From NCBI GenBank assembly GCA_019873625.1, contig JAIOAW010000003.1, forward strand, positions 39,675 to 103,674: a stretch of DNA of 64,000 nt, read 5' to 3'. This DNA is from Chloroflexota bacterium (lineage in GTDB: Bacteria; Chloroflexota; Anaerolineae; UBA1429). A program made the translations under genes and the position numbers. Of the stretch, positions 10,055-62,048 are shown piece by piece (within the stretch, counting starts at the first letter, position 1; each line of letters opens with the position of its first letter). A model generated the notes under the pieces. The model searched no databases, was not told the origin of the DNA, and saw only the letters and a program-made list of their open reading frames with translations.

Positions 10055-10954
10055 TCAACCCTGGGCCTTTAGGTCCACGCCGGTGGCCTCGGTGTAAAGT
10101 TCGCAGATGCCGATGGAATCCAGGTCTCCCTTGCCCAAGCCCAGGGCTTGGGTGTACAGTTGGTAAATAAGCGCCGTAACGAACACGGGCACCCCTTGTG
10201 CTTTGGCGAAATCCACGGCCAGGCCCACGTCTTTATGCATAAGCGACAGTTTGAAGCCGGGCTTGAGATCCCCCTTCAAAATGCTCGCGGCCACCTTTTC
10301 TTCCAGAATCCAACTGCGCGCCGTGGCGCCGGAAAGGATCCTGTGCACGAGGCCCGTATCAATCCCCGCCTTTTTGGCGATGGTGAGTGCCTCGGCGATG
10401 GCCACGGCCTCTGCCGCCACGATGAGGTTATTCCCCAGTTTGACGACGAGTGCCGACCCGTTCGGCCCAACGTAGGTGATGCTCTTGCCCACGGCCTCGA
10501 GCACGGGTTTGACCTTGTGGAAGGCTTCCTCTGGCCCGCCCACCATAATGGCCAGCGTGCCGGCGATAGCGCCCGTCTGCCCGCCGCTCAGGGGGGCATC
10601 GAGGAGGGTCATCCCCTTTTGGGCGGCGGCCTTGGCTAGGCGCTGTGAGGTGAGGGGGGAGATGGTGCTCGTATCTACGATGATGAGGCCCTCGCGCCCA
10701 CCCGCTAGCACGCCGTCTGGCCCCAAGACGATCTCTTCGACCACGGCGTCATTGGGCAGGCAGAGCATCACCACTTCCGTTTGGGCGGCGACTTCGGCGG
10801 GCGTATTCACCTTTTGAGCGCCGGCCGCGATGAGGCGCTCCACGGGGGCCGGGTTGCGGTGCCCCATAATGACGACCTCGAACCCCGCCTTGAGCAAATT
10901 GGCGGCCATCGGCTCGCCCATCGTGCCGACTCCGATGAACCCTATACGCTTCAT
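10055..10954 (-). CDS. NAD(P)-dependent 3-hydroxyisobutyrate / tartronate-semialdehyde-reductase-like oxidoreductase.
   Basis: The N-terminal Rossmann motif is MKRIGFIGVGTMGEPMAANL. Length is 299 aa, typical of beta-hydroxyacid dehydrogenases. The ribosome-binding site is AAGGAGGG. Confidence 0.8.
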   Translation of the reverse strand: MKRIGFIGVGTMGEPMAANLLKAGFEVVIMGHRNPAPVERLIAAGAQKVNTPAEVAAQTEVVMLCLPNDAVVEEIVLGPDGVLAGGREGLIIVDTSTISPLTSQRLAKAAAQKGMTLLDAPLSGGQTGAIAGTLAIMVGGPEEAFHKVKPVLEAVGKSITYVGPNGSALVVKLGNNLIVAAEAVAIAEALTIAKKAGIDTGLVHRILSGATARSWILEEKVAASILKGDLKPGFKLSLMHKDVGLAVDFAKAQGVPVFVTALIYQLYTQALGLGKGDLDSIGICELYTEATGVDLKAQG

Positions 10955-10975
10955 ATGGATTCCCTCCTTTTTCTT

Positions 10976-12058
10976 TTATGGTGCCATCGTGGCCGGGGGC
11001 GCCACCCCAAGGCCCTCGCCGATGCGGCAGATTTCCTGATAGACGGGGGCCTCAAAGGGGATGCCCTCCACCTCATAGCGCGCCTGGCAGCGCCGCTCCA
11101 GTTCGCCGGGCATCAAGATTTCTTCCACGCCGGCCTGCCGGGGGATGGCCTTGATTTCGGCCACCAGGGTATCCATCCGCTCCAAGAAGGCCTCTTTCGG
11201 CCCGAAGGCAGAGACGTCAAGCGCGCCGAACGAATGGCCCACGTTCTGCCCCCGGTGAAAGTCTCCGTACAGAGCGCCCAGGTGCGGGCCGAAATCGGCG
11301 CCCGAAAGGAGGGCGCTCAGAATCTCCACCATCAATGCGAGGCCGTACCCCTTGTGCCCGCCCACGGGGAGCATCATCCCGCTCAGGGCGGCTTGCACAT
11401 CGGTGGTGGGGTTGCCGTCGGCGTCGAGCGCCCAGCCAGGGGGGATGGTCTTACGGCCTTCTTTGGCCATCAGGAGGATCTTGCCCTTGGCGACGACGCT
11501 GGTGGCCATATCGAGCAAGATCGGCCCATAGGAGCCGCTTGGCACGGCCAGGGCGAGGGGATTCGTGCCCAGGTACGGTTTGCGCCCGCCCCAAGGGGGC
11601 ATATTCGGCGGGGCGTTCGTGGTGGTGAAGCCGATCATCCCGGCCTCCACCGCCTGATGCAGGAAGAAGGCCGCCGCGCCATAGTGGCTGCTATGACGCA
11701 CGGCCACGAAACTCACGCCGTGCTCCTCGGCCAGGCGAACGGCCACGCCCATAGCGTAATGCCCCACCACTTGGCCGGGGCCGTTGTCGCCATCCACCAA
11801 GGCCGTGCCGCCGCGTTGGGCTGCGATGTGCACGTTCGGGCAGGGGTTCATCGCCCCGCTCTGCAAGCGCTTGACATAAATATCAAGCAAGCGCGAGACG
11901 CCGTGGCTCCCCTGGCCGCGCAGTTCCGCCTGCACCAAGGAATCGGCCATAATGGCGGCGTGTTCCGCGCTCACGCCCAGGGCCTGGAACACCTCGCGCG
12001 TGAAACGGCGCAAATCCTCCGCCAAGAGGCGATACTCTTCGGAAGAGGGCGCTGTCAT
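10976..12058 (-). CDS. Ldh2-family malate / L-lactate / sulfolactate-type dehydrogenase.
   Basis: The segment AELRGQGSHGVSRL and the Ldh_2 fold pattern are present. The likely start is the ATG at 12058 preceded by AAAGGAG. The earlier GTG start would overlap the upstream gene. Confidence 0.75.
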   Translation of the reverse strand: MTAPSSEEYRLLAEDLRRFTREVFQALGVSAEHAAIMADSLVQAELRGQGSHGVSRLLDIYVKRLQSGAMNPCPNVHIAAQRGGTALVDGDNGPGQVVGHYAMGVAVRLAEEHGVSFVAVRHSSHYGAAAFFLHQAVEAGMIGFTTTNAPPNMPPWGGRKPYLGTNPLALAVPSGSYGPILLDMATSVVAKGKILLMAKEGRKTIPPGWALDADGNPTTDVQAALSGMMLPVGGHKGYGLALMVEILSALLSGADFGPHLGALYGDFHRGQNVGHSFGALDVSAFGPKEAFLERMDTLVAEIKAIPRQAGVEEILMPGELERRCQARYEVEGIPFEAPVYQEICRIGEGLGVAPPATMAP

Positions 12059-12059
12059 A

Positions 12060-12800
12060 TCACTCCTTTTCACCGAGGGATGGGTCTTTTTCTAGCGGTT
12101 TGACCGTCTCATCTTCGGGGAGGCCGGCCTTTTTGTACAAGGCCCGCCGAGCGGCTCGATCCCCTTCCGCGACGACGCGCGCCCATTGGGCCACCTCCTC
12201 GGCGATTTCGATGGGCACCACGACGACGCCGTCGCCATCGGCCACTACGACGTCGCCGGGGCGCACCTGAACTCCCCCGCAGGTGATGGTGCGCTGCTCG
12301 CTTTCCCATTCCAAGCGGAAGGGGCGAATCGTCTTTTCGATGTGGTGGCTATACACGGGCACGCGCTGGCGAATGAGTTCGTCCGTATCGCGGCAGCCGC
12401 CGTTTGTTACAATGCCCACGGCCCCGCTCAGAATCCACGAAAAACCGTTGTTCGAGCCGATGTACCCGACGTGCACATCCGTCCCATCAATGACGATGAC
12501 GTCTCCCTCCTCGATGGGCATTTTGGGGCCGGGCGCGAGTTCGCGGTACCAGCGAGAGATTGCCTCGCGGTTTTCTTCAGGGGTGCCGTTGAGGATGGGT
12601 TTATTCGTGGGCACAAAGCGCACGGTGTGAGCAAACCCCACAAAACAGTGGGCAAAGGTCTCGACATCCCGCCACAAGGGGCGAATGTTATAATCCATAT
12701 TCCCGCGATCTTGCCGCCCGAGGATGTCCATCGCATCCGAGACGTCCGTCACGCGCAGGCCCCGGTAAAGGGCCATCAGCCGTTTTCTCGTTTCGTCCAT
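12060..12800 (-). CDS. RraA-family protein (aldolase / decarboxylase-like), paralog 1.
   Basis: The RraA/HMG-CHA-aldolase fold pattern is GDVIVIDG...GYIGSNNGF...GAVGIVTNGGCRDTDEL. It is a paralog of the gene at 23954-24676. Confidence 0.7.
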   Translation of the reverse strand: MDETRKRLMALYRGLRVTDVSDAMDILGRQDRGNMDYNIRPLWRDVETFAHCFVGFAHTVRFVPTNKPILNGTPEENREAISRWYRELAPGPKMPIEEGDVIVIDGTDVHVGYIGSNNGFSWILSGAVGIVTNGGCRDTDELIRQRVPVYSHHIEKTIRPFRLEWESEQRTITCGGVQVRPGDVVVADGDGVVVVPIEIAEEVAQWARVVAEGDRAARRALYKKAGLPEDETVKPLEKDPSLGEKE

Positions 12801-12812
12801 AAGCGGCCTCCA

Positions 12813-13481
12813 TTAGAGCGTGATGCCGCTATCGGTGAGCGCCTTGCGAAAGCCCAAGATGTCGAGCGTCAACTCGCCTCGCTCAAGGCGCTGCATCACC
12901 ACGGCCTCGTTGGCCTCTCGGGCACGGGCCTTTTCCAGCACCTGGGCGAGTTTCGCTTGGGGCACCACCACGACGCCGTCGTCATCCCCCAAGATGAGGT
13001 CGCCCGGATGCACCGTGACGCCCCCCACCACCACGGGGTGGTTGATCCAGCCCAAGGTCTTTTTCACCGTGGCGCGCATACAGATGGCCGACGACCAGAT
13101 GGGGAACCCCCGCTTGACGATGACCTCTCGATCTCGGATGCCCCCGGCGATGACCAGGCCCGCCACGCCGCGCGCTATGGCCGCCACTGTGGTGATCTCG
13201 CCCCAATAGCCGGCATCCTTCAGGTCGCCGACATCGGCCACGATGACATCGCCCGGCTGGGCAAGGGCGATGGCCGTGTGGAGCATGAGGTTATCGGCTG
13301 GGAAGCAGCGCACGGTAATCGCCGTGCCGCAGACGTGCTGGCCCCAGGCGATGGGCCGGATGGTGTGATCCATCGCGCCGGATTGGTCGTTCGCCTCGTA
13401 CACGGTGGCCGCCCCTAGGGCGGCGTAGGCCTCTACGATTTCTCGGGGGATGCGGGGAACGTCTCGGATGATGCGATCCAT
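12813..13481 (-). CDS. RraA-family protein, paralog 2.
   Basis: The pattern is GDVIVADVG...GYWGEITT...GVAGLVIAGGIRDREVI. The ribosome-binding site is AGGAGAG. Confidence 0.7.
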   Translation of the reverse strand: MDRIIRDVPRIPREIVEAYAALGAATVYEANDQSGAMDHTIRPIAWGQHVCGTAITVRCFPADNLMLHTAIALAQPGDVIVADVGDLKDAGYWGEITTVAAIARGVAGLVIAGGIRDREVIVKRGFPIWSSAICMRATVKKTLGWINHPVVVGGVTVHPGDLILGDDDGVVVVPQAKLAQVLEKARAREANEAVVMQRLERGELTLDILGFRKALTDSGITL

Positions 13482-21290: not shown

Positions 21291-22238
21291 TCAGCCTCCT
21301 TCGTAATAGACCCAGGTTTCCGCGAGCCGCAATTGGATGATCGTAAAACCGAGGATGATAAAGAACAGCAGCCAGGCCAGCGACGAGGCATAGCCCATAT
21401 TGAACTGCTCGAACGCGAGCCGGTAGAGGTAAAGGACGGTGAACAACGTCGAGTTGGCCGGCCCACCCGCCGTCATCAAGAAGGCGCCCGTGAATACTTG
21501 GAACGAGCCGATGATGCCCATCACCACGTTAAAGAGCATCACGGGCGAGAGCATCGGCATAGTCACGTGCCAGAACTGCGCCCAAGCGTTTGCCCCGTCA
21601 ATCTGGGCAGCCTCATAGAGCGACTGCGGGATGTTCTGCAGCCCGGCGAGGAAGATGATCATACGGTTCCCACCTGCACCCCAGAGGCTCATCAGGACGA
21701 AGGTGGCCTTGGAGGTCTTGGCGCTCCAAATCCATTGCGAAGGCGGCAGGCCGATGGCTTTGAGGACCATATTCGCCAGGCCCACTTCAGGGTTCAGAAT
21801 CCAGAACCAAACGATGGCCGAGGCCACGGCAGGGGTGAGCGAAGGCATATAGAAGAAGGTGCGGAACCAGGCCCGTCCATACATCTCTTGGACGCATAAC
21901 AGCGCCAAGATGAGCGAGGCGATGATCCCCAGCGGCACGCTGAGGAAGGTATAGTAAGCCGTGTTCCACAGAGAGATGCCGACGAAACGGTCGGCAAACA
22001 GTTGGCGGATATTCTCCAGCCCCACCCATTCGGGGGGCATAAAAAGGTTCCAACGCGTGAAGGCAAGCCAAAGCGAGGCGAGCATTGGCCCGGCCGTCCA
22101 AAGGATGAACCCCAACAGCCAAGGGAAGATAAAGATGTAGCCGTCTATGGCTTCTCGGATGGCTAGTTTGGAACGGCGCCTTTTGCCCGCTGCCTTGGCC
22201 AGCATGCCGGCTTGCGGCACGCGCGTTACGGTGGCCAT
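21291..22238 (-). CDS. Carbohydrate ABC transporter permease (MalF-like).
   Basis: The permease signature is EAAQIDGANAWAQFWHVTMPM. The likely start is ATG (MATVTRV) preceded by AGGAGGG. Confidence 0.85.
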   Translation of the reverse strand: MATVTRVPQAGMLAKAAGKRRRSKLAIREAIDGYIFIFPWLLGFILWTAGPMLASLWLAFTRWNLFMPPEWVGLENIRQLFADRFVGISLWNTAYYTFLSVPLGIIASLILALLCVQEMYGRAWFRTFFYMPSLTPAVASAIVWFWILNPEVGLANMVLKAIGLPPSQWIWSAKTSKATFVLMSLWGAGGNRMIIFLAGLQNIPQSLYEAAQIDGANAWAQFWHVTMPMLSPVMLFNVVMGIIGSFQVFTGAFLMTAGGPANSTLFTVLYLYRLAFEQFNMGYASSLAWLLFFIILGFTIIQLRLAETWVYYEGG

Positions 22239-22371
22239 TCTGTCGTTCCCTCCTGATCCATTTTGCCCGGACACTAAGGCTGCAATGAGCAGAGGGGGAC
22301 CGCTGCTCTGCCTCATCTGCAATCGAGGCAGAGCAGCGGGTTCCTGCGCATCTACTCGCGGTGCCCGGCCA

Positions 22372-23850
22372 TTACCACTTGGCCTCGGCCAAGACCTTAT
22401 CCGCCTCTTCCTTCATCTTGCGGGCCGCGCCGGCCACATCTTCGGATTGGCACGTGAAGACAGGATCCAGGTACGTGGAGTACAGTTGCTTGAGTTTGCC
22501 CATCCCCACGGGCGCCTTCATAGCGATCCGCTTGAGAGGGCCGGTGTAGTCGGTCTTCCACGGCTTGATGTGGACGTCCGCATAGTGCTCGGGGATGCCG
22601 TCCGTCGGCGCAATCACATCCAGGATATTCGGCCGGTTGACGCTCCAACGCTTCTGCTCGCCGATCCACTTTTGGATTTCCTCGCTGGTGAGGAACTTGA
22701 CCAACCGCCAACCCTCTTCTTTGTGCGCCGCCTTGGCCGTTACGCCAAAGGCCGAGCAGGCCGCTGGCGCATACTGGCCGAAGGGGCCAGCGGGCAGAGG
22801 CGTTACGTCATACTTGAACTGCACCGCCTCTTGCTTGGCAAAGAAAGTGTTCTGCTGGTGGTCATACTTCATCGCCACGAGGCGGGCGTTGCGCCACAAG
22901 TCGCCCTGGCCCACGGCCTGCGCAGGGGTGGGCATACAGTTGATGACACAACGCAGTTTGCGGCACAGTTCCCAATACTGGATGACTGCGTCGCTATCAA
23001 AGTTGGAGGTCTTCATATCCGGCTCGAACCAGTGCTTGCCGAAGGCGTTGACGAACCCCGCCGGGATATCGGCGGCCATGGTCGGATCCACCCAGGCGCA
23101 ACCGAAGACCTTGATCTTGGTCTTGTCGAACTTGGGATCATTGGCGGGGCGGCCGTTCTCGTCTCGCGTGAGGAGCGTGGCCGTCTCGACAAAGTCGTCA
23201 ATCGTCCAGGTGAGCGACGGATAGGGCACGCCGTACTGATCGAACATATCCTTGTTGTAGTAGCAGCCGTACAGCGCGCTATCTTTGGGGATGAGGTACT
23301 GCTTGCCGCCGTGGGCGAACTCGTCCATCAGTTCGATAATGAAATCCTCGCGCTTGATCCCATCGCGCTCCATATACGGCATATGGTCAATGAAGGCGCC
23401 GTTGTAGATATAGTCCATCGCGATGGTCCAGTGCGCGTGGCATACGTCGGGCGTTACGCCAGCGGCGAGCACCGTCGGCAGTTTCGTCATATAGTCGCTC
23501 CAGGATTCGAAACTGACGTTCACCCGAACGTCTGGGTTCTCATCCATAAAGCGGTAGATAAAGTTCGTGTACATCGTGCGCTCGAGGCCCACGCCTGCGG
23601 GGGTGAAGAAATCAATCTGCACCTTCTCTTTGGGCGTGGCTTGCACGACCTTGGTGACCTCCACGACCTTTTCCACCACTTGGGGCGTGCCTTGGACGAC
23701 GACGGTCTCTTTGACCACCTCTTGGACGACCTTGGTGACCTCGACGACCTTTTCTACCACTTTGGGCTGGCAGCCCGCCAAGACGGCTGCGCCGAGGCCA
23801 ATACCGGATAGGCGTAGCAACTGTCGGCGAGAAATCTTGTCGGTGAACAT
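22372..23850 (-). CDS. ABC transporter substrate-binding lipoprotein with a Tat signal.
   Basis: The N-terminus is MFTDKISRRQLLRLSGIGLGAAVLAGC (a twin-arginine motif plus lipobox). A repetitive (KVVEVTKVVQ)n linker leads into the binding-protein family-1 body. Confidence 0.85.
   Translation of the reverse strand: MFTDKISRRQLLRLSGIGLGAAVLAGCQPKVVEKVVEVTKVVQEVVKETVVVQGTPQVVEKVVEVTKVVQATPKEKVQIDFFTPAGVGLERTMYTNFIYRFMDENPDVRVNVSFESWSDYMTKLPTVLAAGVTPDVCHAHWTIAMDYIYNGAFIDHMPYMERDGIKREDFIIELMDEFAHGGKQYLIPKDSALYGCYYNKDMFDQYGVPYPSLTWTIDDFVETATLLTRDENGRPANDPKFDKTKIKVFGCAWVDPTMAADIPAGFVNAFGKHWFEPDMKTSNFDSDAVIQYWELCRKLRCVINCMPTPAQAVGQGDLWRNARLVAMKYDHQQNTFFAKQEAVQFKYDVTPLPAGPFGQYAPAACSAFGVTAKAAHKEEGWRLVKFLTSEEIQKWIGEQKRWSVNRPNILDVIAPTDGIPEHYADVHIKPWKTDYTGPLKRIAMKAPVGMGKLKQLYSTYLDPVFTCQSEDVAGAARKMKEEADKVLAEAKW
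23647..23765. repeat. Two near-identical 39-nt direct repeats (36/39 identity) inside the linker region of the binding-protein gene.
   Basis: The two copies are gaccttggtgacctccacgaccttttccaccacttgggg and gaccttggtgacctcgacgaccttttctaccactttggg. On the minus strand they encode QVVEKVVEVTKVVQ twice. Confidence 0.7.
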
Positions 23851-23953
23851 ACTCCTCTCCTTTACCTTCTAGGCCGTAGAGCACTCCAAACCGTTCATGA
23901 GATGAGAATTCGCTTTGCTCCACCTCCTTTCTGCTCGCGTGAGCCTGCCCGCG

Positions 23954-24676
23954 TTACTTGAACTGGGCGTAATAGGCCTCGACCTTTTCCACGTCCACCG
24001 TTTCATCCATCGGCAGGCCCAGGCGCTCGTACAGACGGCGGCGGCCACGCATATCGGCGAGGAGGATGGCGATGGCATGCCGCGCCACTTCTTCCGCCAA
24101 ATCCGAAGGCACCACGATGACGCCGTCATCGTCGCAGCCGACGATGTCTCCAGGGCGCACCTGGGCGCCGCCGCAGGCGATGACCGTGTTCGCCTCCACC
24201 TCCATAATGCGGCCGGGGATGATGGTGCGGCCGCGCTTGCGGCAGGCGACGGGCGTCTTCTGCAGGCACACCTCGTAGGTATCGCGGCAGTAGCCATCCG
24301 TGACGATGCCCACGGCGCCGGCGGCGATCATCGCGAGCGAGTTGTTAGACCCCCAATACCCCACCTCTTTGGATTCGCCCGTATCCGTGACGATGACGCA
24401 GCCCGGGGTGATAAGTTCGCGCAGATGCACGGGGCTGGGGTACTTGGCATACCAGTGGGCATGGTCGCGGACGATATCCTCGGTCGTTTCGAGTTTCCAC
24501 ATCGGCCGGTTCGAGGGCACACAACGCAGGGTAACGGCTGGCCCCCAGAACTTCATACCAGACCAGAGGGGGCGGATCTCGGGGGACATCAGGCCGATGT
24601 CGAAATAGCCAATGCCGTCCATCGCGTCGGCCACGTCCACCACTCGCAAGTACTTGTACAGGTCTACGACGTTCAT
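23954..24676 (-). CDS. RraA-family protein, paralog 3.
   Basis: The pattern is GCVIVTDTG...GYWGSNNSL...GAVGIVTDGYCRDTYEV. Overall similarity to the gene at 12060-12800 is clear. Confidence 0.7.
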   Translation of the reverse strand: MNVVDLYKYLRVVDVADAMDGIGYFDIGLMSPEIRPLWSGMKFWGPAVTLRCVPSNRPMWKLETTEDIVRDHAHWYAKYPSPVHLRELITPGCVIVTDTGESKEVGYWGSNNSLAMIAAGAVGIVTDGYCRDTYEVCLQKTPVACRKRGRTIIPGRIMEVEANTVIACGGAQVRPGDIVGCDDDGVIVVPSDLAEEVARHAIAILLADMRGRRRLYERLGLPMDETVDVEKVEAYYAQFK

Positions 24677-24691
24677 TCTCCACTCCTGCCT

Positions 24692-24707
24692 TTATAGAAT
24701 AGGGGCC
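24692..24707. promoter_or_regulatory. Conserved upstream motif, copy 2 (TTATAGAATAGGGGCC). It lies 18-29 nt upstream of the RraA paralog 3 ATG.
   Basis: It shares the 12-mer ATAGAATAGGGG with copy 1, in the same position relative to the start codon. Confidence 0.5.
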
Positions 24708-24892
24708 AGGTTTTGCGTCACGGCCCCGCGTGACCGGGGGATGTGCCCTAGGCGCCCCAAGGGCGCACGTAGACCGAAAGGCGGCCCCAAAGGCCGTTAG
24801 GCATTTTAGGGCCTTTCTCCTATAATCATTGTAGCAGGTTTTTCAATAAATGAAGCGTCAAGTTGAGGACAATTACAGGCCAAAGAGGGGAC

Positions 24893-26149
24893 ATGCTCCA
24901 CGATGAGACGTTGCTCCGGGCGCTTCGCTCGGCCTTGCGCCACCTTTATGAGACGCCGGCCCTCCAGGAAAACGCCCTGGTGGAGTATTTCGGCTTGGCC
25001 GGTTCGCCCAACGCGGCGTCGGAGTTGAGGCGCATCCTCATCGAGGCCATCCGTTCGCTCCAGCCGGAGGATACGGTGCCGGCGGATGCCGAAATCTGGC
25101 GCGTGTATGAAATCCTCCAGTATCGCTATGTGCAGCAGTGTACCCAGGCCGAGGTTGCGCGCCAGTTAGGGCTGAGCATCCGGCATTTGCGGCGCGAGGA
25201 GATGCGCGCCGCCGAGGTGCTTGCCCTGGCCCTCCAAGCGCGGTGGGAGAAGGAATCCGCCCAGCAGGGCGAACCCGCCGAAGGGAGAAACGATTCCTTC
25301 GCCAAGGAGTTGGCCTGGCTAGAACAGTCGCCCGCCCACGAACAGTTCGACCTTTGCGCCCTGCTCGAGGCCCTTGGGGAACTCGTGCGACCTATGGCGC
25401 AAGCCCACCATACGCGGGTCGAGATGGCTCTCCCGGAGGCCCCTTGTGAAATCCTCTCTCAACCTGTGGGGTTGAGGCAGATCGTCCTGAGCCTCCTTAC
25501 TTTGGCCATCGATCGCGCCGTAGGGGGGAGTGTACACGTGAGTGCGCAACCGCACCAAAGGCACGCACGCCTGACGCTTACGGCGGAGGGCACCGGCACA
25601 ACGTGCGCTAGCAGTCCCCCCGATGCGCGAGAGCACATCGCTATGGTCGAGCGGCTGGCCCGCCTGTGCGGGGCCAAGGTGGAGGTGACCCTGAGGGATG
25701 GGGCCTTCCAGGCCGTGGTGGACCTCCCCATTCCCCAACAAATCCCCGTCCTGGTCATTGACGATAACCAAGATACCTTGCGCCTTCTGGAGCGCTACGC
25801 GGCCGACACGCCCTTTCGCCTGATGGGGGTGCGCGATGTGGAGCAGGCCTTTCAAGTGGCCGCGACTACCCCGCCGAGCATCATCGTGCTTGATGTGATG
25901 ATGCCCCGCGTAGATGGTTGGGAAGTGCTGGGGCGGCTCAGGCAGCACCCCCTGACCTGCCGCACGCCGATTATTGTGTGTACGATTCTGGCCCAGGAGG
26001 AACTGGCGCGCTCTCTGGGCGCGAGCGATTATCTTCGTAAGCCACTGTCTCGAGAGGCCTTTCTGAAGGCTCTGGAGCGCCAGTGCGCTCTGGCGGGGCC
26101 AGAAGGGCCGTCAAAGCCTCTGTACAGCGCAAGAACTCCTGCAGGCTGA
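24893..26149 (+). CDS. Response-regulator-like protein with an unusual architecture: a sigma70 region-4-like helix-turn-helix, a histidine-kinase-like ATPase segment, and a C-terminal receiver domain.
   Basis: The helix-turn-helix is WRVYEILQYRYVQQCTQAEVARQLGLSIRHLRR. The canonical receiver is PVLVIDDNQD...LDVMMPRVDGW...SDYLRKP. The ATG at 24893 is preceded by AAGAGGGG; a TTG lies at 24863. Confidence 0.55.
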   Translation: MLHDETLLRALRSALRHLYETPALQENALVEYFGLAGSPNAASELRRILIEAIRSLQPEDTVPADAEIWRVYEILQYRYVQQCTQAEVARQLGLSIRHLRREEMRAAEVLALALQARWEKESAQQGEPAEGRNDSFAKELAWLEQSPAHEQFDLCALLEALGELVRPMAQAHHTRVEMALPEAPCEILSQPVGLRQIVLSLLTLAIDRAVGGSVHVSAQPHQRHARLTLTAEGTGTTCASSPPDAREHIAMVERLARLCGAKVEVTLRDGAFQAVVDLPIPQQIPVLVIDDNQDTLRLLERYAADTPFRLMGVRDVEQAFQVAATTPPSIIVLDVMMPRVDGWEVLGRLRQHPLTCRTPIIVCTILAQEELARSLGASDYLRKPLSREAFLKALERQCALAGPEGPSKPLYSARTPAG

Positions 26150-28250
26150 TTCCCCCGCCGCGCGTCACGTTGAGAAAACTCGTGGCATAGCCTCCCGGCG
26201 CGGCATCGAGCGCGGAGATGGCGATGACGGGAATATCGCGGATGGCCTCCTCTTGGCGCTTTTGCCTGAGCACGGCGAACCCATCCATCCCCGGCATAAT
26301 GAGGTCCAAGAGCATCACATCGGGCCGCCGCGAGCGCAAGAGCGCCAAGGCGCGTTCGCCGCTCGTGGCGCGGTAAATCTGGTAGCGGCGTTCCCCGGTC
26401 GAGAGCATACGCCCAAAGAGTTGCAGGGCCTCGGGGTTATCGTCCACCAAAAGGATGGATTTCACGCCGTTGGGGATGCGATCCAGCGCGGCCAAGAGAT
26501 CCTCTTGCTGGATGGGCTTGAGCAGGTAGGCCACGACGCCGAGGTGGTCGGCGGCCTCCTGCTTTTCTGGGATGAAGCAATGGATGACCGGCGTGCCGAA
26601 GGGGAGGCGCGCGGCCGTGCTGACATCCTCTAGCCCCTCGGGGGGCAGGGCCTCGTTGATGAGGAGCGCCCGCGCCGGCACGCGCGAGACCTCCCGGATG
26701 GCCTCTTCCAGTGTGTGCACGGGGGCGACTTCTACCTCTGGCTCGTGGCGGGCCAGGATGCGCTTGAGCGTATCGGATGGCTCCAGCACCACCAGGCGGG
26801 GCCGTACGTTCGGCTGGGGCGCCTGCGAGGGCCGCGTGCGCGGCTCATAGGTTTGATAAGGGTTGAACCAGCGCATCCCCTCGCGCACGGGTAAAGGGGC
26901 GAGCACGTCGAGGGGCAGCCGAGCGTAAAAGGTGGAGCCCTTGCCGGGTTCGCTTTCCACCCACATCTTGCCGCCGTGGAGTTCCACAAAGCGCCGGCTG
27001 ATGGCCAACCCCAGGCCAGACCCCCCATATAGGCGGCTGATGCTCCCATCATACTGTTCAAATGGCTCGAAGATGCGCTCCTGATCCTCTTTGGGGATGC
27101 CTGGCCCCGTATCGGCCACGCTGATGACCATCGTTTGGTCTTCTACGCGCGCGCGGACGTGGGCGCCGCCCCGTTCGGTAAAGCGCCCAGCGTTGCTCAA
27201 GAGGTTGATGATCACCTGGCGAATGCGCGTCTTGTCGCAATACACGAGGGGCAACCCTTCCGGCACGTCCATAGTCAGCGAGAGGCCTTTGGATTGGAAG
27301 AGGGGCATCACAGCGGTGAGGGCCGATTCGACGATCTCGCGCATCGAGACCTTTTCTCTCACCAAGGCCAGCCGGCCGGCCTCGGTGCGGCTCAGGTCGA
27401 GCACATCATCTACCAGGCTGGCCAGGTGCTTGCTGTTGCGCTGGATGACCTCGATATCCGCCAGGAGTTGCGGCGGCAGTTCGCGGCCGTAAAGGCGCGG
27501 GTTCTGGGTGATGATCTCGCTGAAGCCGATGATCATATTGAGGGGCGTGCGCAGTTCGTGGCTCACGTTGGCCACGAATTCCTCTTTGGCGCGGCGGGCC
27601 TCCTCGGCCACGCGGTACATCGCCCGCAGCCGATCGGAGATGCGCGCCAGTTCGGCATTGGCCTGGTTCAAATCCTGCTGGACCTCTTTGAGATGGAGCC
27701 GCTGCGTGCGCGCCTCTTCCAAGAGGGCGCGCATATAGTCAAAGTTCGCCCAAGACCATTGCGTGCTCGTCTGCGCAAAGCGGAGCGCCACCCACACCAC
27801 TCCCCACGTAACCCAGACCATCTCGATGGCCACGAGGTGCGAAAAGGCCAGGTCTCGCCGCAAAAGAAAGAGGGTCAAGAGGGCAGCGAGCACCGCGCCA
27901 TAGGCCGGGCCTGAGGCAAGTGCCGCCAGCCCTACGGGCAGGCCGATGAGGCCCAGGATCATCAGGCTCCCTTGCTGCCAGGCGGCCAAAGGCAAAATGG
28001 TGTAAAAGACGATGAGGAGCCATAGGCAGAGGTTGGGGTGCTGGCGCGTGAGGAGCCAAATGCCAAGCGGCACGAGGAGGATGAGCATCCCCAACGCGCT
28101 GGTGCTCGCCTCGAAGCGGCGCATCTCGGCCAAAAGGATGAGCAATTGCCCAAAGACCAGGGAACCGATCACGGCCAGGCCCAGGGCGCGCGAACGCGTT
28201 TCTTCGCGCATCTCTTGGTAGAAATCTGCCCGCGAACCCAATTCCAGCAT
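25971..28250 (-). CDS. Hybrid sensor histidine kinase (transmembrane sensor, HisKA, HATPase, a degenerate receiver and a canonical receiver).
   Basis: The H-box is [10 protein letters not shown]. The G-boxes are DTGPGIP and [18 protein letters not shown]. The receiver is [10 protein letters not shown]...[10 protein letters not shown]. The C-terminal 60 codons overlap the 3' end of the convergent regulator gene. Confidence 0.85.
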
Positions 28251-28328
28251 AAGCACTCCTTGCCGGCGGCCTTGCCGATGAGGCGCCGGCGCCTCGTTGG
28301 GGCGATAGCCCTTCGCGCTTGAAACGCG

Positions 28329-59157: not shown

Positions 59158-59211
59158 TCGGGTTGGGCCGACCTAGGGATCTGCCCACCACACTGCTCAA
59201 AAGGGGTGACG

Positions 59212-59850
59212 ATGAACTTTCCCGATCGCCTTGATTTGAGCCAGGCCCTTCCGCCCTGGCTGCGGAGTTTGCTTTCGCTGGGGTTGACCATCAGCGCGGC
59301 GGTGCTCTATGCGGGGGTGCTCGGCATCGCCATCGTGCGCACCTGGCAAGAGCCAGACCCAGCCTTCTCTTCGACGATGGTGCGCGCTGCGAGCGTGCTC
59401 AGCGGGTTAGTGGGGGGCGTGGTGGCCGCCGGGTTCTCGCAGAGCCGCCGGCAGGTGCCCATCCAGGTGAAGGCGCAGGCGCCCGATGACCCCTCTCAAG
59501 AGGTCACTTGGACCACATATCGCCCCGTATCCCTCTTTAAGCGCAATTTTCTGGGCCTGGGGCGAACCCTCGGTATGCCGGTGTTCTCGCTTGGCCTCCA
59601 ATTCTCCTCGGATGACGAGGAACCCGCCCTTCCCCCGGAGGAGGCCATCCGCGAGCCGGCAGCCAACAAACTTGTGATGGGGGTGGCCCTCCTCTATTTC
59701 GTGATCTATTTCGTGGTGGGGGTGGCCGCTTTTGCCCTCACCCTTTTGCGCCCCACCGTGCCCGAGATCATCTCCAACGCGGGTTGGGTGTGGCTGGGCA
59801 CGGTGGCTACGGCGGGCTACTCGTTCTTTGCGCTGGATAGCCAGGCCTAG
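59212..59850 (+). CDS. Hypothetical membrane protein.
   Basis: Four predicted transmembrane helices. No recognisable motif. The ATG is 6 nt after AAAGGGG. Confidence 0.3.
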   Translation: MNFPDRLDLSQALPPWLRSLLSLGLTISAAVLYAGVLGIAIVRTWQEPDPAFSSTMVRAASVLSGLVGGVVAAGFSQSRRQVPIQVKAQAPDDPSQEVTWTTYRPVSLFKRNFLGLGRTLGMPVFSLGLQFSSDDEEPALPPEEAIREPAANKLVMGVALLYFVIYFVVGVAAFALTLLRPTVPEIISNAGWVWLGTVATAGYSFFALDSQA

Positions 59851-62048
59851 GCCGCCTCGGAGGCGGGGGATTTGCCCTGGGCAAGGAGGCGCAGGCCGTT
59901 CAGCGTCACCAAGATGGCTGCACCCGTATCGGCCAAAACGGCCATCCATAGCGTGGAATAGCCCGCGATGGCCAACCCTAAGAAGAGGGCCTTGATGACC
60001 AGGGCAAAGGCCACGTTCGCACGGACGATGCGCATAGCCCTTTGGCTAAGGCCCACGGCGAACGGCAAGGCGCGCAGATCGTTTTGCATCAGGGTGATAT
60101 CAGCCGTCTCCAGGGCGGCGTCGGCGCCCGTCTTGCCCATCGCGATGCCCACGGAGGCTTTGGCGAGGGCCGGCGCGTCATTGATGCCATCTCCCACCAT
60201 AGCCAGGGATCCCCATTCCTCCTCTAGGCGAGAGACGAGGCCCTGTTTTTCCTCGGGCAACAGGCCCGCATAGACGGCATCCGCCCGGATGGCCTCGGCC
60301 ACGTGGCGGGCCGCCTGGGCGTGATCTCCGGTGAGGATGGCGACGTGCCGAACGCCCAAGCGCCGCAGGGCGGCGATGCTTTCCGCCGCTTGGGGGCGCA
60401 CGGCATCGGCCACGGCCCAATAGCACCGTTCGCCACAACAGGCATCGTGGGCCACGAGGACCGTGTAACCCTGCCTCTCGGCCTCTTTTACCTGCGAGCA
60501 AAGGGCGTCTTCGCCTTCAACGCCCAAGCACGCGTGGTAGAAGGCGTGGCTGCCGATGGCCACCTCGTGCCCCTGCACGCGCCCCGTTACACCCAGGCCG
60601 GGGTGGGCCATTACCCCTTCTGGGGCGAGATATTGGCCGCGCACCCCTTGGGCCTCCGCATAGGCGACCACGGCCTGCGCCACCAGGTGGCCGGATTGCT
60701 CTTCGATGGCGGCGGCCTTGGCGAGCATATCGCGGCAGAGGGCGCAGTGCGGGTCCGTCTCGCTGTGGAGGGTGCAGGCCCCCCCAACGATTTCTAAGTT
60801 TCCTTCGGTGAGGGTGCCCGTCTTATCGAAGGCGATGGCCTTGACGCGTGCCAGGGCCTCGAGGTAGCGCCCCCCTTTGATGAGCACCCCCGAGCGCGCC
60901 GCGCGCGCCAGGGCGCTGACCAGCGTAACGGGCGTGGAGATGACCAGCGCGCAGGGGCAGGCGATGACCAGGAGCACCAACCCTCGGTAGAACCAGGTGG
61001 CCCAATCTCCCAGGCCGAGAAGGGGCGGCACGCAGGCTACGAGGAGCGCCGCCGCCATCACGGCGGGGGTGTAACGCTGTGCAAAACGGTCTACAAAGCG
61101 CTGGGCGGGGGCGCGTTCGCTTTGGGCCTGTTCCACCAGGCGCAGGATGCGCGCCAGGGTGCTTTCTTGGGCCAGGCGCGTCACGCGGATCGTCAGCGCG
61201 CCGTTGCCGTTGATCGTCCCAGCGTAGACGGCTTCCCCCGGCCCCTTTTCCACAGGCACAGATTCTCCCGTGATGGGCGCCTGGTTGACGGCGGAATGCC
61301 CCTCGACGATCGTGCCATCCATCGCGATGCGCTCGCCGGGCTGGGTGAGGATGAGGTCGCCGACGCGGAGTTCAGCCACCGGCACGCGCTCTCGCGTTTC
61401 GCCATTGAGGCGCGTGGCCTCATCCGGCGCGACGGCCATCAAGGTTCGGATGGCTCGGCGCGCCCGGTCGGCGCTGTAATGCTCGAGGAGTTCGCCCACC
61501 GTAAAGAGGAACATCGTCACGGCGCCTTCGGCATAGTCTCCCAAGGCCACCGCGCCGATGACGGCTACGGTCATCAGGGCGTTCATATCGAGGCTGTGGG
61601 CCGAGCGCAGAGTGGCCCAGGCGGCCTTGGCCACGGGCAGGCCCGCAAGCAGGATAGATGCCCCCAGGAGAAGGCGCGAAAGGAAGAGCGGCGCGCCTAG
61701 CCACTGGGCGGCGAGGCCCGCCGCGAGGGCTACCGCCGCGGCGATGACCCAAAAGGTGTGAGGCGCGTGCTCCGAATCGCCCCCGTGATGATGGGCTTCG
61801 TGGGCGGCGTGCTCATCCGTGAGAGGCTCGATGATGTAGCCCATCTCCTTGCCGAGGCGCTGAACCGACTCGACGAGGGAGGGGGTATCCCCTTGGGGCC
61901 AGATGCGCAGTTGCCCGGCCATAAAGGCGAGTTCGGCGCGGCGCACGCCAGGGAGGGCGGCTACAGCCGCCTCTAGGCGGCGGGCGCAATCGGGGCAATC
62001 TAGGTGGTGGATGGTGAAGGTGAGTGCGGTGGAATCTGTGGTCATCAT
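59847..62048 (-). CDS. Heavy-metal (Cd/Zn/Pb-type) translocating P1B-type ATPase.
   Basis: The N-terminal metal-binding domain has HLDCPDC. A His-rich stretch HEAHHHGGDSEHAPH follows. The transmembrane CPC motif is IACPCALVIS. The phosphorylation motif is DKTGTLT and the hinge is GDGINDAPAL. Confidence 0.9.
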   Translation of the reverse strand: MMTTDSTALTFTIHHLDCPDCARRLEAAVAALPGVRRAELAFMAGQLRIWPQGDTPSLVESVQRLGKEMGYIIEPLTDEHAAHEAHHHGGDSEHAPHTFWVIAAAVALAAGLAAQWLGAPLFLSRLLLGASILLAGLPVAKAAWATLRSAHSLDMNALMTVAVIGAVALGDYAEGAVTMFLFTVGELLEHYSADRARRAIRTLMAVAPDEATRLNGETRERVPVAELRVGDLILTQPGERIAMDGTIVEGHSAVNQAPITGESVPVEKGPGEAVYAGTINGNGALTIRVTRLAQESTLARILRLVEQAQSERAPAQRFVDRFAQRYTPAVMAAALLVACVPPLLGLGDWATWFYRGLVLLVIACPCALVISTPVTLVSALARAARSGVLIKGGRYLEALARVKAIAFDKTGTLTEGNLEIVGGACTLHSETDPHCALCRDMLAKAAAIEEQSGHLVAQAVVAYAEAQGVRGQYLAPEGVMAHPGLGVTGRVQGHEVAIGSHAFYHACLGVEGEDALCSQVKEAERQGYTVLVAHDACCGERCYWAVADAVRPQAAESIAALRRLGVRHVAILTGDHAQAARHVAEAIRADAVYAGLLPEEKQGLVSRLEEEWGSLAMVGDGINDAPALAKASVGIAMGKTGADAALETADITLMQNDLRALPFAVGLSQRAMRIVRANVAFALVIKALFLGLAIAGYSTLWMAVLADTGAAILVTLNGLRLLAQGKSPASEAA

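Follow-up and report, generated by a model that had tools for sequence, protein, structure and literature searches.

Overlap of a convergent kinase and regulator gene pair

The window analyzed here, a 64,000-nucleotide (nt) stretch of a Chloroflexota bacterium genome (class Anaerolineae; contig JAIOAW010000003.1 of assembly GCA_019873625.1, positions 39,675 to 103,674), carries a plus-strand regulator gene and a minus-strand hybrid histidine kinase gene that converge and overlap at their 3' ends. An earlier note on this DNA had claimed an overlap of 179 bp, and both the open reading frame (ORF) listing and the sequence agree with that length. The two frames are set such that kinase codon position 1 faces regulator position 1, position 2 faces position 3 and position 3 faces position 2, a phase that Lillo and Krakauer 2007 (PMC2174442) denote as (123:132). 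Placed on the DNA, the terminal helix of the regulator (alpha-5) ends at 26092 and that of the kinase at 26103, so the functional ends of the two genes lie only ~9 nt apart. The coordinates of these and other features are collected in Table 1.

Table 1. Features of the kinase/regulator junction (window positions) and of the palindromes in related loci (positions within each locus)
Feature	Position	Strand	Remarks
Regulator gene	24863..26149	+	ORF from TTG 24863, 428 aa; gene callers: ATG 24893, 418 aa
Hybrid histidine kinase gene	25971..28256	-	ORF 761 aa; gene callers start 2 codons later, 759 aa
Convergent overlap	25971..26149	both	179 bp, both stop codons counted
Present kinase stop TAA	25971..25973	-	TTA on the + strand; within regulator Ile-Ile ATT ATT (25970-25975), receiver strand beta4 (TPIIVCT)
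Present regulator stop TGA	26147..26149	+	within kinase Ile-Ser ATC AGC (26150..26145) of 'GGG-IS-LQ'
Ancestral (modal) kinase stop site	26046..26048	-	here ACA = Thr737; 25 further codons
Ancestral (modal) regulator stop site	26111..26113	+	here TCA = Ser417; 12 further codons
Regulator receiver helix alpha-5	26051..26092	+	AlphaFold helix 387-400 (numbered from Met at 24893); opposite strand is part of the kinase tail
Kinase receiver helix alpha-5	26103..26144	-	AlphaFold helix 705-718; conserved family-wide; opposite strand is the regulator tail
Junction	26084..26092	both	about three codons, all three positions variable; constraint passes from regulator frame to kinase frame
Kinase passenger tail, ~residues 725-761	25974..26083	-	Pro/Glu/Ser/Arg-rich; pLDDT <50; antisense to regulator receiver codons
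Regulator passenger tail, residues 411-428	26093..26146	+	last 15 residues pLDDT <50; antisense to kinase alpha-5 and LAPP codons
Palindromes, L165	5345-5373, 4822-4865		
Palindrome, L121	5233-5243		
Palindromes, L130	2121-2164, 2652-2715		
Palindromes, L139	2055-2083, 2559-2638		
Palindromes, L142	4684-4745, 5233-5294		
Palindromes, L149, L161 and L162			also present

Long 3'-3' overlaps of this kind are rare, as the earlier note had said. A survey of 338 genomes (Palleja 2008, PMC2478687) found no genuine co-directional or divergent overlap longer than 60 bp and listed 178 convergent ones, of which 124 were attributed to misannotated 3' extensions and 54 were possibly genuine, most of the genuine ones being conserved in very close species only. 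That record, together with the long shadow ORFs that arise in high-GC genomes (22147..23811 of the window is an example), is what speaks for a local indel, a miscalled stop or a spurious shadow ORF mimicking the overlap, an explanation to which we nevertheless give next to no credence. An assembly from an independent read run (L166), found via a regulator protein 100% identical to that of the window, matches the window at 99.97% identity over 7,029 nt and at 100% across 25800-26350. Relatives from three other metagenomes (L001, L086 and L087) differ from the window by 68-69 substitutions and zero indels in 551 nt (87.5% identity), and all three retain the 179-bp overlap. The two remaining minus-strand frames contain stops and no receiver-like sequence, and both ORFs are real genes, with Pfam domains and hundreds of orthologues ending in the same register. 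The hidden indel against which the earlier note had advised checking is thus absent, and the stopped alternative frames, the identical assembly and the indel-free relatives rule out a frameshift or sequencing error. We conclude that this is a genuine long convergent overlap of coding sequences (CDSs), reproducible in independent data and conserved beyond very close relatives.

The C-terminus of the regulator is a predicted receiver (PF00072), with a complete Response_reg match (residues 296-404, profile positions 1-110 of 111, 68 bits; a weak sigma-70 region-4 match was also found), an acidic pocket, a phospho-Asp and a Lys-Pro pair. D290 is nearly invariant and D291, D334, K383 and P384 are invariant in the receiver alignment, and AlphaFold predicts a (beta-alpha)5 fold, of which the overlapped part comprises beta5 and alpha5; the earlier note was right to call that part canonical. 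Upstream of the receiver lie an N-terminal helix-turn-helix resembling sigma-70 region 4, a long helix and a CA-like alpha/beta domain (24893-25750, plus strand). The best PDB matches of the regulator model are ShkA, HK853, RetS and DivL, Pfam detected no HATPase_c domain in it, and at its only candidate His, H98, members of the family have either H or Q. The protein therefore gives the impression of a pseudo-kinase-like core joined to a DNA-binding domain and a receiver, an unusual architecture.

The kinase combines HisKA (residues 223-294, with an invariant H233 in 'SHELRTP'), HATPase_c (341-450) and a receiver (601-684) in one polypeptide and is accordingly predicted to be a hybrid histidine kinase. 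A pseudo-receiver missed by Pfam is predicted at ~487-592 (26481-26798, minus strand), where a (beta-alpha)5 fold has a nearly invariant Asn534 in the place of the phospho-Asp. The terminal receiver matches profile positions 1-80 of 111 only; the acidic pocket and the phospho-Asp are retained, with D605/D606 and D651 present, and the alpha4/beta5 region is degenerate throughout the family (26145-26205, minus strand), being short, with a predicted local distance difference test score (pLDDT) <50 at residues 684-703, and having 'VTRGGG' instead of Lys-Pro. A conserved alpha5-like helix comes next, at 705-718. The best Foldseek match is full-length ShkA (PDB 6qrj, E = 2.7e-21 over 501 columns), which has the same domain order of DHp, CA, pseudo-receiver and receiver. 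The two differ in that identity is only 26%, that the window kinase has an N-terminal multi-helix membrane region (transmembrane helices) and that its terminal receiver is degenerate in alpha4/beta5, reading 'TRGGG' for Lys-Pro.

The earlier note had remarked that the kinase lacks the DYLxKP end of a receiver, and it does. The overlap can be dismissed as the cause, because the 'VTRxGG-helix-LAPP' end is found family-wide, including in loci where just the post-helix tail overlaps. The same note had taken the kinase's alpha-5 segment for a low-complexity extension forced by the opposite strand; this segment is instead the conserved, kinase-constrained alpha-5 of an atypical receiver, and only about the last 37 residues of the kinase are passenger sequence.

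A phase-locked junction and its displaced stops

The family searches returned 7817 kinase and 702 regulator matches, and the best 120 of each, as listed, include full-length orthologues. The kinase is one of a large set of orthologous proteins of 730-760 aa from Anaerolineae and other Chloroflexota, the regulator likewise belongs to such a family, and many contigs appear in both match lists. Loci were gathered by exact-protein look-ups, a profile scan of genome contigs and a metagenome scan. The genome-contig scan, run with the full kinase alignment, chose generic HisKA motifs and yielded unrelated kinases in 75 of 80 loci, the useful ones being L006-L010. The metagenome scan took as its seed the N-terminal half of the regulator, which is specific to the family, and is independent of the overlap. 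We scored overlaps with an ORF and phmmer script in the 72 loci that hold both 3' ends.

The 3' ends of kinase and regulator overlap in 70 of these 72 Chloroflexota/Anaerolineae loci. By far the commonest length is 68 bp (37 loci), followed by 62 and 26 bp (five each), 179, 77 and 65 bp (four each), 104, 74 and 32 bp (two each), and 47, 42, 86, 51 and 59 bp (one each); the two other loci have gaps of 28 and 42 nt. The phase is the same in 69 of the 72, and kinases merely 33-38% identical to the query still overlap their regulators by 47-74 bp. The 179-bp length is confined to the clade of the window, L166, L001, L086 and L087. In 18 metagenome loci without a detected kinase, the contig ends at most 545 nt from the regulator stop. 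A junction without a spacer that is kept in 70 of 72 loci is not a product of chance. Since the two genes are adjacent in every locus long enough to tell, a functional partnership between them is very likely, in line with the earlier note's suggestion that they may be partners. One distant kinase homologue (L011, 3309-5510; 33% identity, from a Chloroflexota metagenome-assembled genome) lacks a convergent regulator of the family downstream; probably a paralogue that does not belong to the module, it was set aside from the comparison.

Two domain anchors, the Lys-Pro codon of the regulator and the 'IPVIAISA' codon in beta4 of the kinase, lie exactly 195 nt apart in 43 of 67 loci, the window among them. 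Of 40 distinct sequences with this geometry, 37 share a single kinase stop site and 33 a single regulator stop site (TGA or TAA). In this phase, a stop on one strand needs the partner codons [N-T-Y or N-C-T][A-N-N] on the other. The modal kinase stop is embedded in the regulator motif K-P-[V/I/L]-[T/S], where [NTY][ANN] reads as TGA or TAA on the other strand: the codon after the regulator's KP is GTC in 37 sequences, ATC in 10, GTT in 6, CTT or CTC in 6 and ATT in 1, and the second codon past KP begins with A in 57 of 62. The modal regulator stop is likewise embedded, in the [V/I/L]-Ser codons (NTY AGY) of kinase alpha-5.

Both embedded stops are displaced in the window. The regulator has CTG TCT (Leu-Ser) after KP, and because of this the kinase reads a Thr codon where most orthologues end in '...ETPxG*' and continues for 25 codons. 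The regulator in turn reads a Ser codon at the usual stop position and continues for 12 codons, since the kinase encodes the Leu there with TTG and not with NTY; most orthologous regulators end ~10 residues past 'ALDRQ', and the window clade adds 12 residues. Each gene has a sense codon at the orthologous stop position, with no indel and with the 195-nt geometry unchanged, and the lengths add up exactly: 68 + 36 + 75 = 179. The later regulator stop, 12 codons downstream, also occurs in L002, where the overlap is 104 bp. We read the 179 bp as a lineage-specific enlargement of an ancestral overlap of ~68 bp through loss of both stops. Extension of 3' ends after stop-codon loss is a source of convergent overlaps described by Rogozin 2002, as relayed by Palleja 2008 (PMC2478687). 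The earlier note had allowed that orthologous kinases ending about 55 codons earlier would betray a local error. They do end earlier, but by 25 codons, and they still overlap the regulator.

The extent of the enlargement needs no special explanation. Across 34 credible genes of the window, stops occur in the antisense frame of this phase at 0.036 per codon, with a mean open run of 28 codons, and the probability of that frame staying open for at least 25 codons is ~0.38-0.40, which makes a read-through of this size ordinary once the stops were lost. The antisense frame in which position 1 faces sense position 3 is far more open (stops at 0.7% of codons, open runs of 139 codons on average), so ORF length alone is no evidence of a gene in this genome; long shadow ORFs (up to 554 aa) lie antisense to real genes at 22147-23811, 23915-24697 and 10781-13418, all on the plus strand. 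The other convergent pairs in the window are separated by gaps of 65, 611, 29 and 346 nt or, in one case, share 4 bp, an overlap of the common short class (59847-59850, between 59206..59850 on the plus and 59847..62048 on the minus strand). The gaps of just 29 and 65 nt show how tightly 3' ends are packed here. The genome is compact, yet the kinase/regulator pair is an outlier among the convergent pairs of the window.

Loci with a larger anchor distance have their insertions exactly at the junction, and their overlaps are 26-51 bp or absent. The enlarged distances are mostly multiples of 3 (204-258 nt), the three exceptions being 257, 266 and 284. One sub-clade carries as its insert a perfect palindrome based on ACCTG[T/C]CAGGT, e.g. 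GACCTGACAGGTTTGGGAAACCTGTCAGGTC, and a second pair of copies lies ~520 nt upstream within the regulator ORF. The palindrome looks like a small element of the repetitive extragenic palindrome (REP) or miniature inverted-repeat transposable element (MITE) kind that lands in unconstrained coding spots. Its insertion shortens or abolishes the overlap, and it could act as a hairpin terminator.

Passenger tails and embedded stops

Per-site entropy among the 40 same-geometry sequences follows the regulator frame, low at position 2 and high at position 3, through regulator codon 44; all three positions vary in codons 45-47, and from codon 48 onward the pattern is that of the kinase frame. Within the strict 68-bp class, the wobble sites of the regulator have an entropy of 1.44 bits inside the overlap as well as upstream of it (P = 0.91), and those of the kinase have 1.35 inside vs. 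1.49 outside (P = 0.25). Reduced synonymous variability inside the overlap, as looked for by wobble entropy, was therefore not found except at the two embedded stop sites. The wobble position of the regulator is position 2 of the kinase and vice versa, and since it varies freely, the overlapped tails are unconstrained as proteins. The substitutions within the 179-bp clade are distributed in the same way, with 10 of 14 at regulator wobble sites in 25971-26092 and 6-8 of 9-11 at kinase wobble sites in 26103-26149. The earlier note had the antisense constraint shaping the kinase tail, a picture at odds with tails that have no constraint in their own frame.

The structure predictions point the same way. 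AlphaFold is confident of the kinase receiver up to residue 681 and has low confidence in 684-703; beyond the helix at 705-718, residues 722-758 have pLDDT <50, and the end of the regulator past its alpha-5 fares likewise (Table 1). The kinases of relatives with junction insertions end directly after '...LSPS', and hence the usual kinase tail is dispensable. From the sequence variability and the predicted disorder we infer that the tails have no function. That both C-terminal tails might instead be functional, with purifying selection in both frames, could be argued from the conserved stop positions and from the recurrent 'P-E-x-P-x-x' ending of the kinase tail. The ending does not qualify as a motif, however, because 'PExP' is the antisense image in this phase of the regulator's conserved Q-A-F-L codons. 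With wobble entropy alike inside and outside the overlap, tails that differ radically among lineages, some kinases ending at '...LSPS' and disorder predicted by AlphaFold, we find such dual coding very improbable.

The two embedded stops are the exception to this freedom. Elsewhere in these regulators, Val is encoded by GTG in 47% of cases and by GTY in 41%, and at the embedded kinase-stop site the Val codon is GTY in 43 of 44 sequences. A context-dependent codon bias does not account for this, as Val followed by an A-initial codon elsewhere is GTY in just 44% of cases in the regulators and 41% in the kinases. We modeled the null expectation by resampling synonymous codons with the partner protein held fixed. 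The kinase stop was at its modal site in 42% of simulations, compared to 37 of 40 observed, and the regulator stop in 25.5%, compared to 33 of 40. In a set thinned to 29 representatives with <75% nucleotide identity, whose wobble identity of 0.41 is near saturation, the kinase stop was modal in 28 of 29 and the regulator stop in 24 of 29. Retention of the two usual stops so far above synonymous drift points to selection against longer tails. Selection against premature stops, that is, for a minimum tail length, was not significant in the same set (0 of 29 vs. 11% expected and 1 of 29 vs. 13%). The stop sites used by the window are among those that the simulations produced: its regulator stop site is the most frequent one beyond the modal site (n = 19, 16% of simulated sequences), and its kinase stop site is among those reached when the modal stop is absent (n = 39, 7.6%).

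Origin of the overlap and comparison with known systems

We think it probable that this is an old convergent junction without a spacer, with passenger tails bounded by embedded, selected stops, that was enlarged to 179 bp in the window lineage by a double loss of stops. In this reading, an ancient two-component module of Anaerolineae and other Chloroflexota has its two alpha-5 helices ending ~9 unconstrained nt apart. Since neither gene stops at its functional end, the ribosome would go on through codons antisense to those constrained in the partner and halt at the first chance stop, which would produce short disordered tails. In most lineages the kinase ends at a TGA or TAA within the regulator's Lys-Pro-[Val/Ile/Leu]-[Thr/Ser] and the regulator at one within the [Val/Ile/Leu]-Ser of kinase alpha-5, giving 68 bp, and selection on otherwise synonymous third positions of the partner would hold both stops in place and cap the tails. 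In the window lineage, the regulator stop would have been lost first, via a synonymous change in the kinase Leu codon, and the kinase stop second, via a change of regulator Val-Thr to Leu-Ala/Ser; each ORF would then have run on to its next stop, the regulator by 12 codons and the kinase by 25, without any indel. The geometry, the conservation, the phase, the passenger behavior of the tails, the retention of the stops and the substitution path can all be observed in the loci compared. The arrangement has probably lasted chiefly because mutation can hardly undo it, insertions being tolerated in the 9-nt junction only.

Several points weigh against this interpretation. The binomial P values for the thinned set (~5e-10 for the kinase stop and ~2e-10 for the regulator stop) assume independent metagenomic sequences and are upper bounds on significance, as thinning to <75% identity eases kinship and does not remove it. 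Eight loci with the kinase stop elsewhere still hold GTC-ACN at the old site, and part of the stop-retention signal could be inheritance or some site-specific constraint. That no stop evolved at the junction itself in the modal geometry is explained just qualitatively. The tails may have a composition-dependent role as a disordered linker, and the model is silent on whether the forced complementarity of the 3' mRNA ends matters.

That complementarity is the starting point of a different explanation, in which the arrangement has been selected because complementary 3' mRNA ends or colliding polymerases tie kinase expression to regulator expression, through duplex formation, RNase III cleavage or transcriptional interference, in the manner of an excludon or of arfA/mscL. 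The earlier note had raised transcriptional interference and antisense pairing, and the convergent arrangement without a spacer in 70 of 72 loci over deep divergence is compatible with such coupling, as are the precedents of arfA/mscL (PMC10070815) and of overlapping transcription and excludons as reviewed in PMC7154746. No intrinsic terminator fits or was detected between the genes, so the two mRNAs would have to overlap at their 3' ends and, if complete, must be complementary over at least the overlap. A terminator scan found no terminator-like site in or beside it, and three sites in the 4.1-kb region compared to 3.1 expected from shuffled sequence. Other signs of an RNA device were also lacking: 22 sequences of 180 nt gave 0 conserved pairs in RNAalifold, the folding of single sequences was unexceptional (z-scores 0.0 and -0.78), and Rfam gave no match at gathering score, its one sub-threshold hit, to RF03090 (24699-24758, 16.9 bits vs. 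a gathering score of 153.8), lying outside the overlap. The idea that the overlap houses a bidirectional terminator or conserved RNA structure can accordingly be set aside.

Selected antisense coupling of this kind appears unlikely to us. There is no signature past coding constraint acting on one frame at a time, the overlap ranges from 26 to 179 bp with gaps of 28 and 42 bp in two loci, and one sub-clade holds a hairpin-forming palindrome at the junction. Selection also appears to shorten rather than lengthen the overlap, and an arrangement that is hard to undo by mutation explains its persistence equally well. A bolder form of the idea, in which the phase-locked junction is itself a selected device whose obligatory sense-antisense pair sets the kinase:regulator ratio or enforces mutual exclusion across the class, strikes us as quite unlikely; if it were true, the 179-bp variant would mark a lineage with stronger coupling. 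We thus return to the old junction with embedded stops as the probable explanation, and regard the overlap as a real, old feature of genome compaction that is neither an error nor a shown regulatory device.

The surroundings of the pair offer candidate targets. Divergent from the regulator and upstream of it are an RraA-like gene (23954..24676, minus strand) and a gene for a sugar-type ABC binding protein (22372..23850, minus strand). In L001, L002, L004 and L166, too, the regulator is flanked by RraA-like genes (1-3 copies), and three of these loci (L001, L004 and L166) also have the binding-protein gene; both may be targets of the module. A sigma-70-like promoter match (10 of 12) lies at 24798-24826 on the plus strand, just 5' of the regulator start.

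The family offers a natural example of how an overlap can originate (at a junction without a spacer), be bounded (by embedded, selected stops) and grow (by stepwise stop loss). For annotation, it means that long 3'-3' overlaps should not be trimmed automatically. It also provides codon models with two sites at which a synonymous change in one gene is constrained solely by the partner's stop. Should the forced mRNA complementarity be functional, kinase and regulator would have a further connection at the level of RNA.

The overlap in the window belongs to a family whose conserved core is among the rare long convergent overlaps that have passed all artefact tests and whose conservation reaches well past close relatives. 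With the long convergent overlaps already known it shares its orientation, the loss or displacement of stops by point substitution, the (123:132) phase and the consequence that any terminator has to sit inside the partner's CDS. It differs from them in that its core (modally 68 bp) is kept throughout a clade of class rank, down to kinases only 33% identical, that its stops are reciprocally embedded in conserved receiver motifs under site-specific synonymous constraint, and that stepwise growth from 68 to 104 to 179 bp is documented. The arfA/mscL pair of Escherichia coli and the excludons (PMC10070815; PMC7154746) are similarly tail-to-tail, with 3'-complementary transcripts and potential antisense control of functionally linked genes; in arfA/mscL, however, a 3' untranslated region faces a CDS and regulation has been demonstrated experimentally, whereas here two CDSs face each other and no sequence feature other than coding was found. 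As in viral overlapping genes, two proteins are encoded on opposite strands of the same DNA, but the viral examples usually constrain both frames, whereas here one frame is constrained at each position and the other is carried as a passenger.

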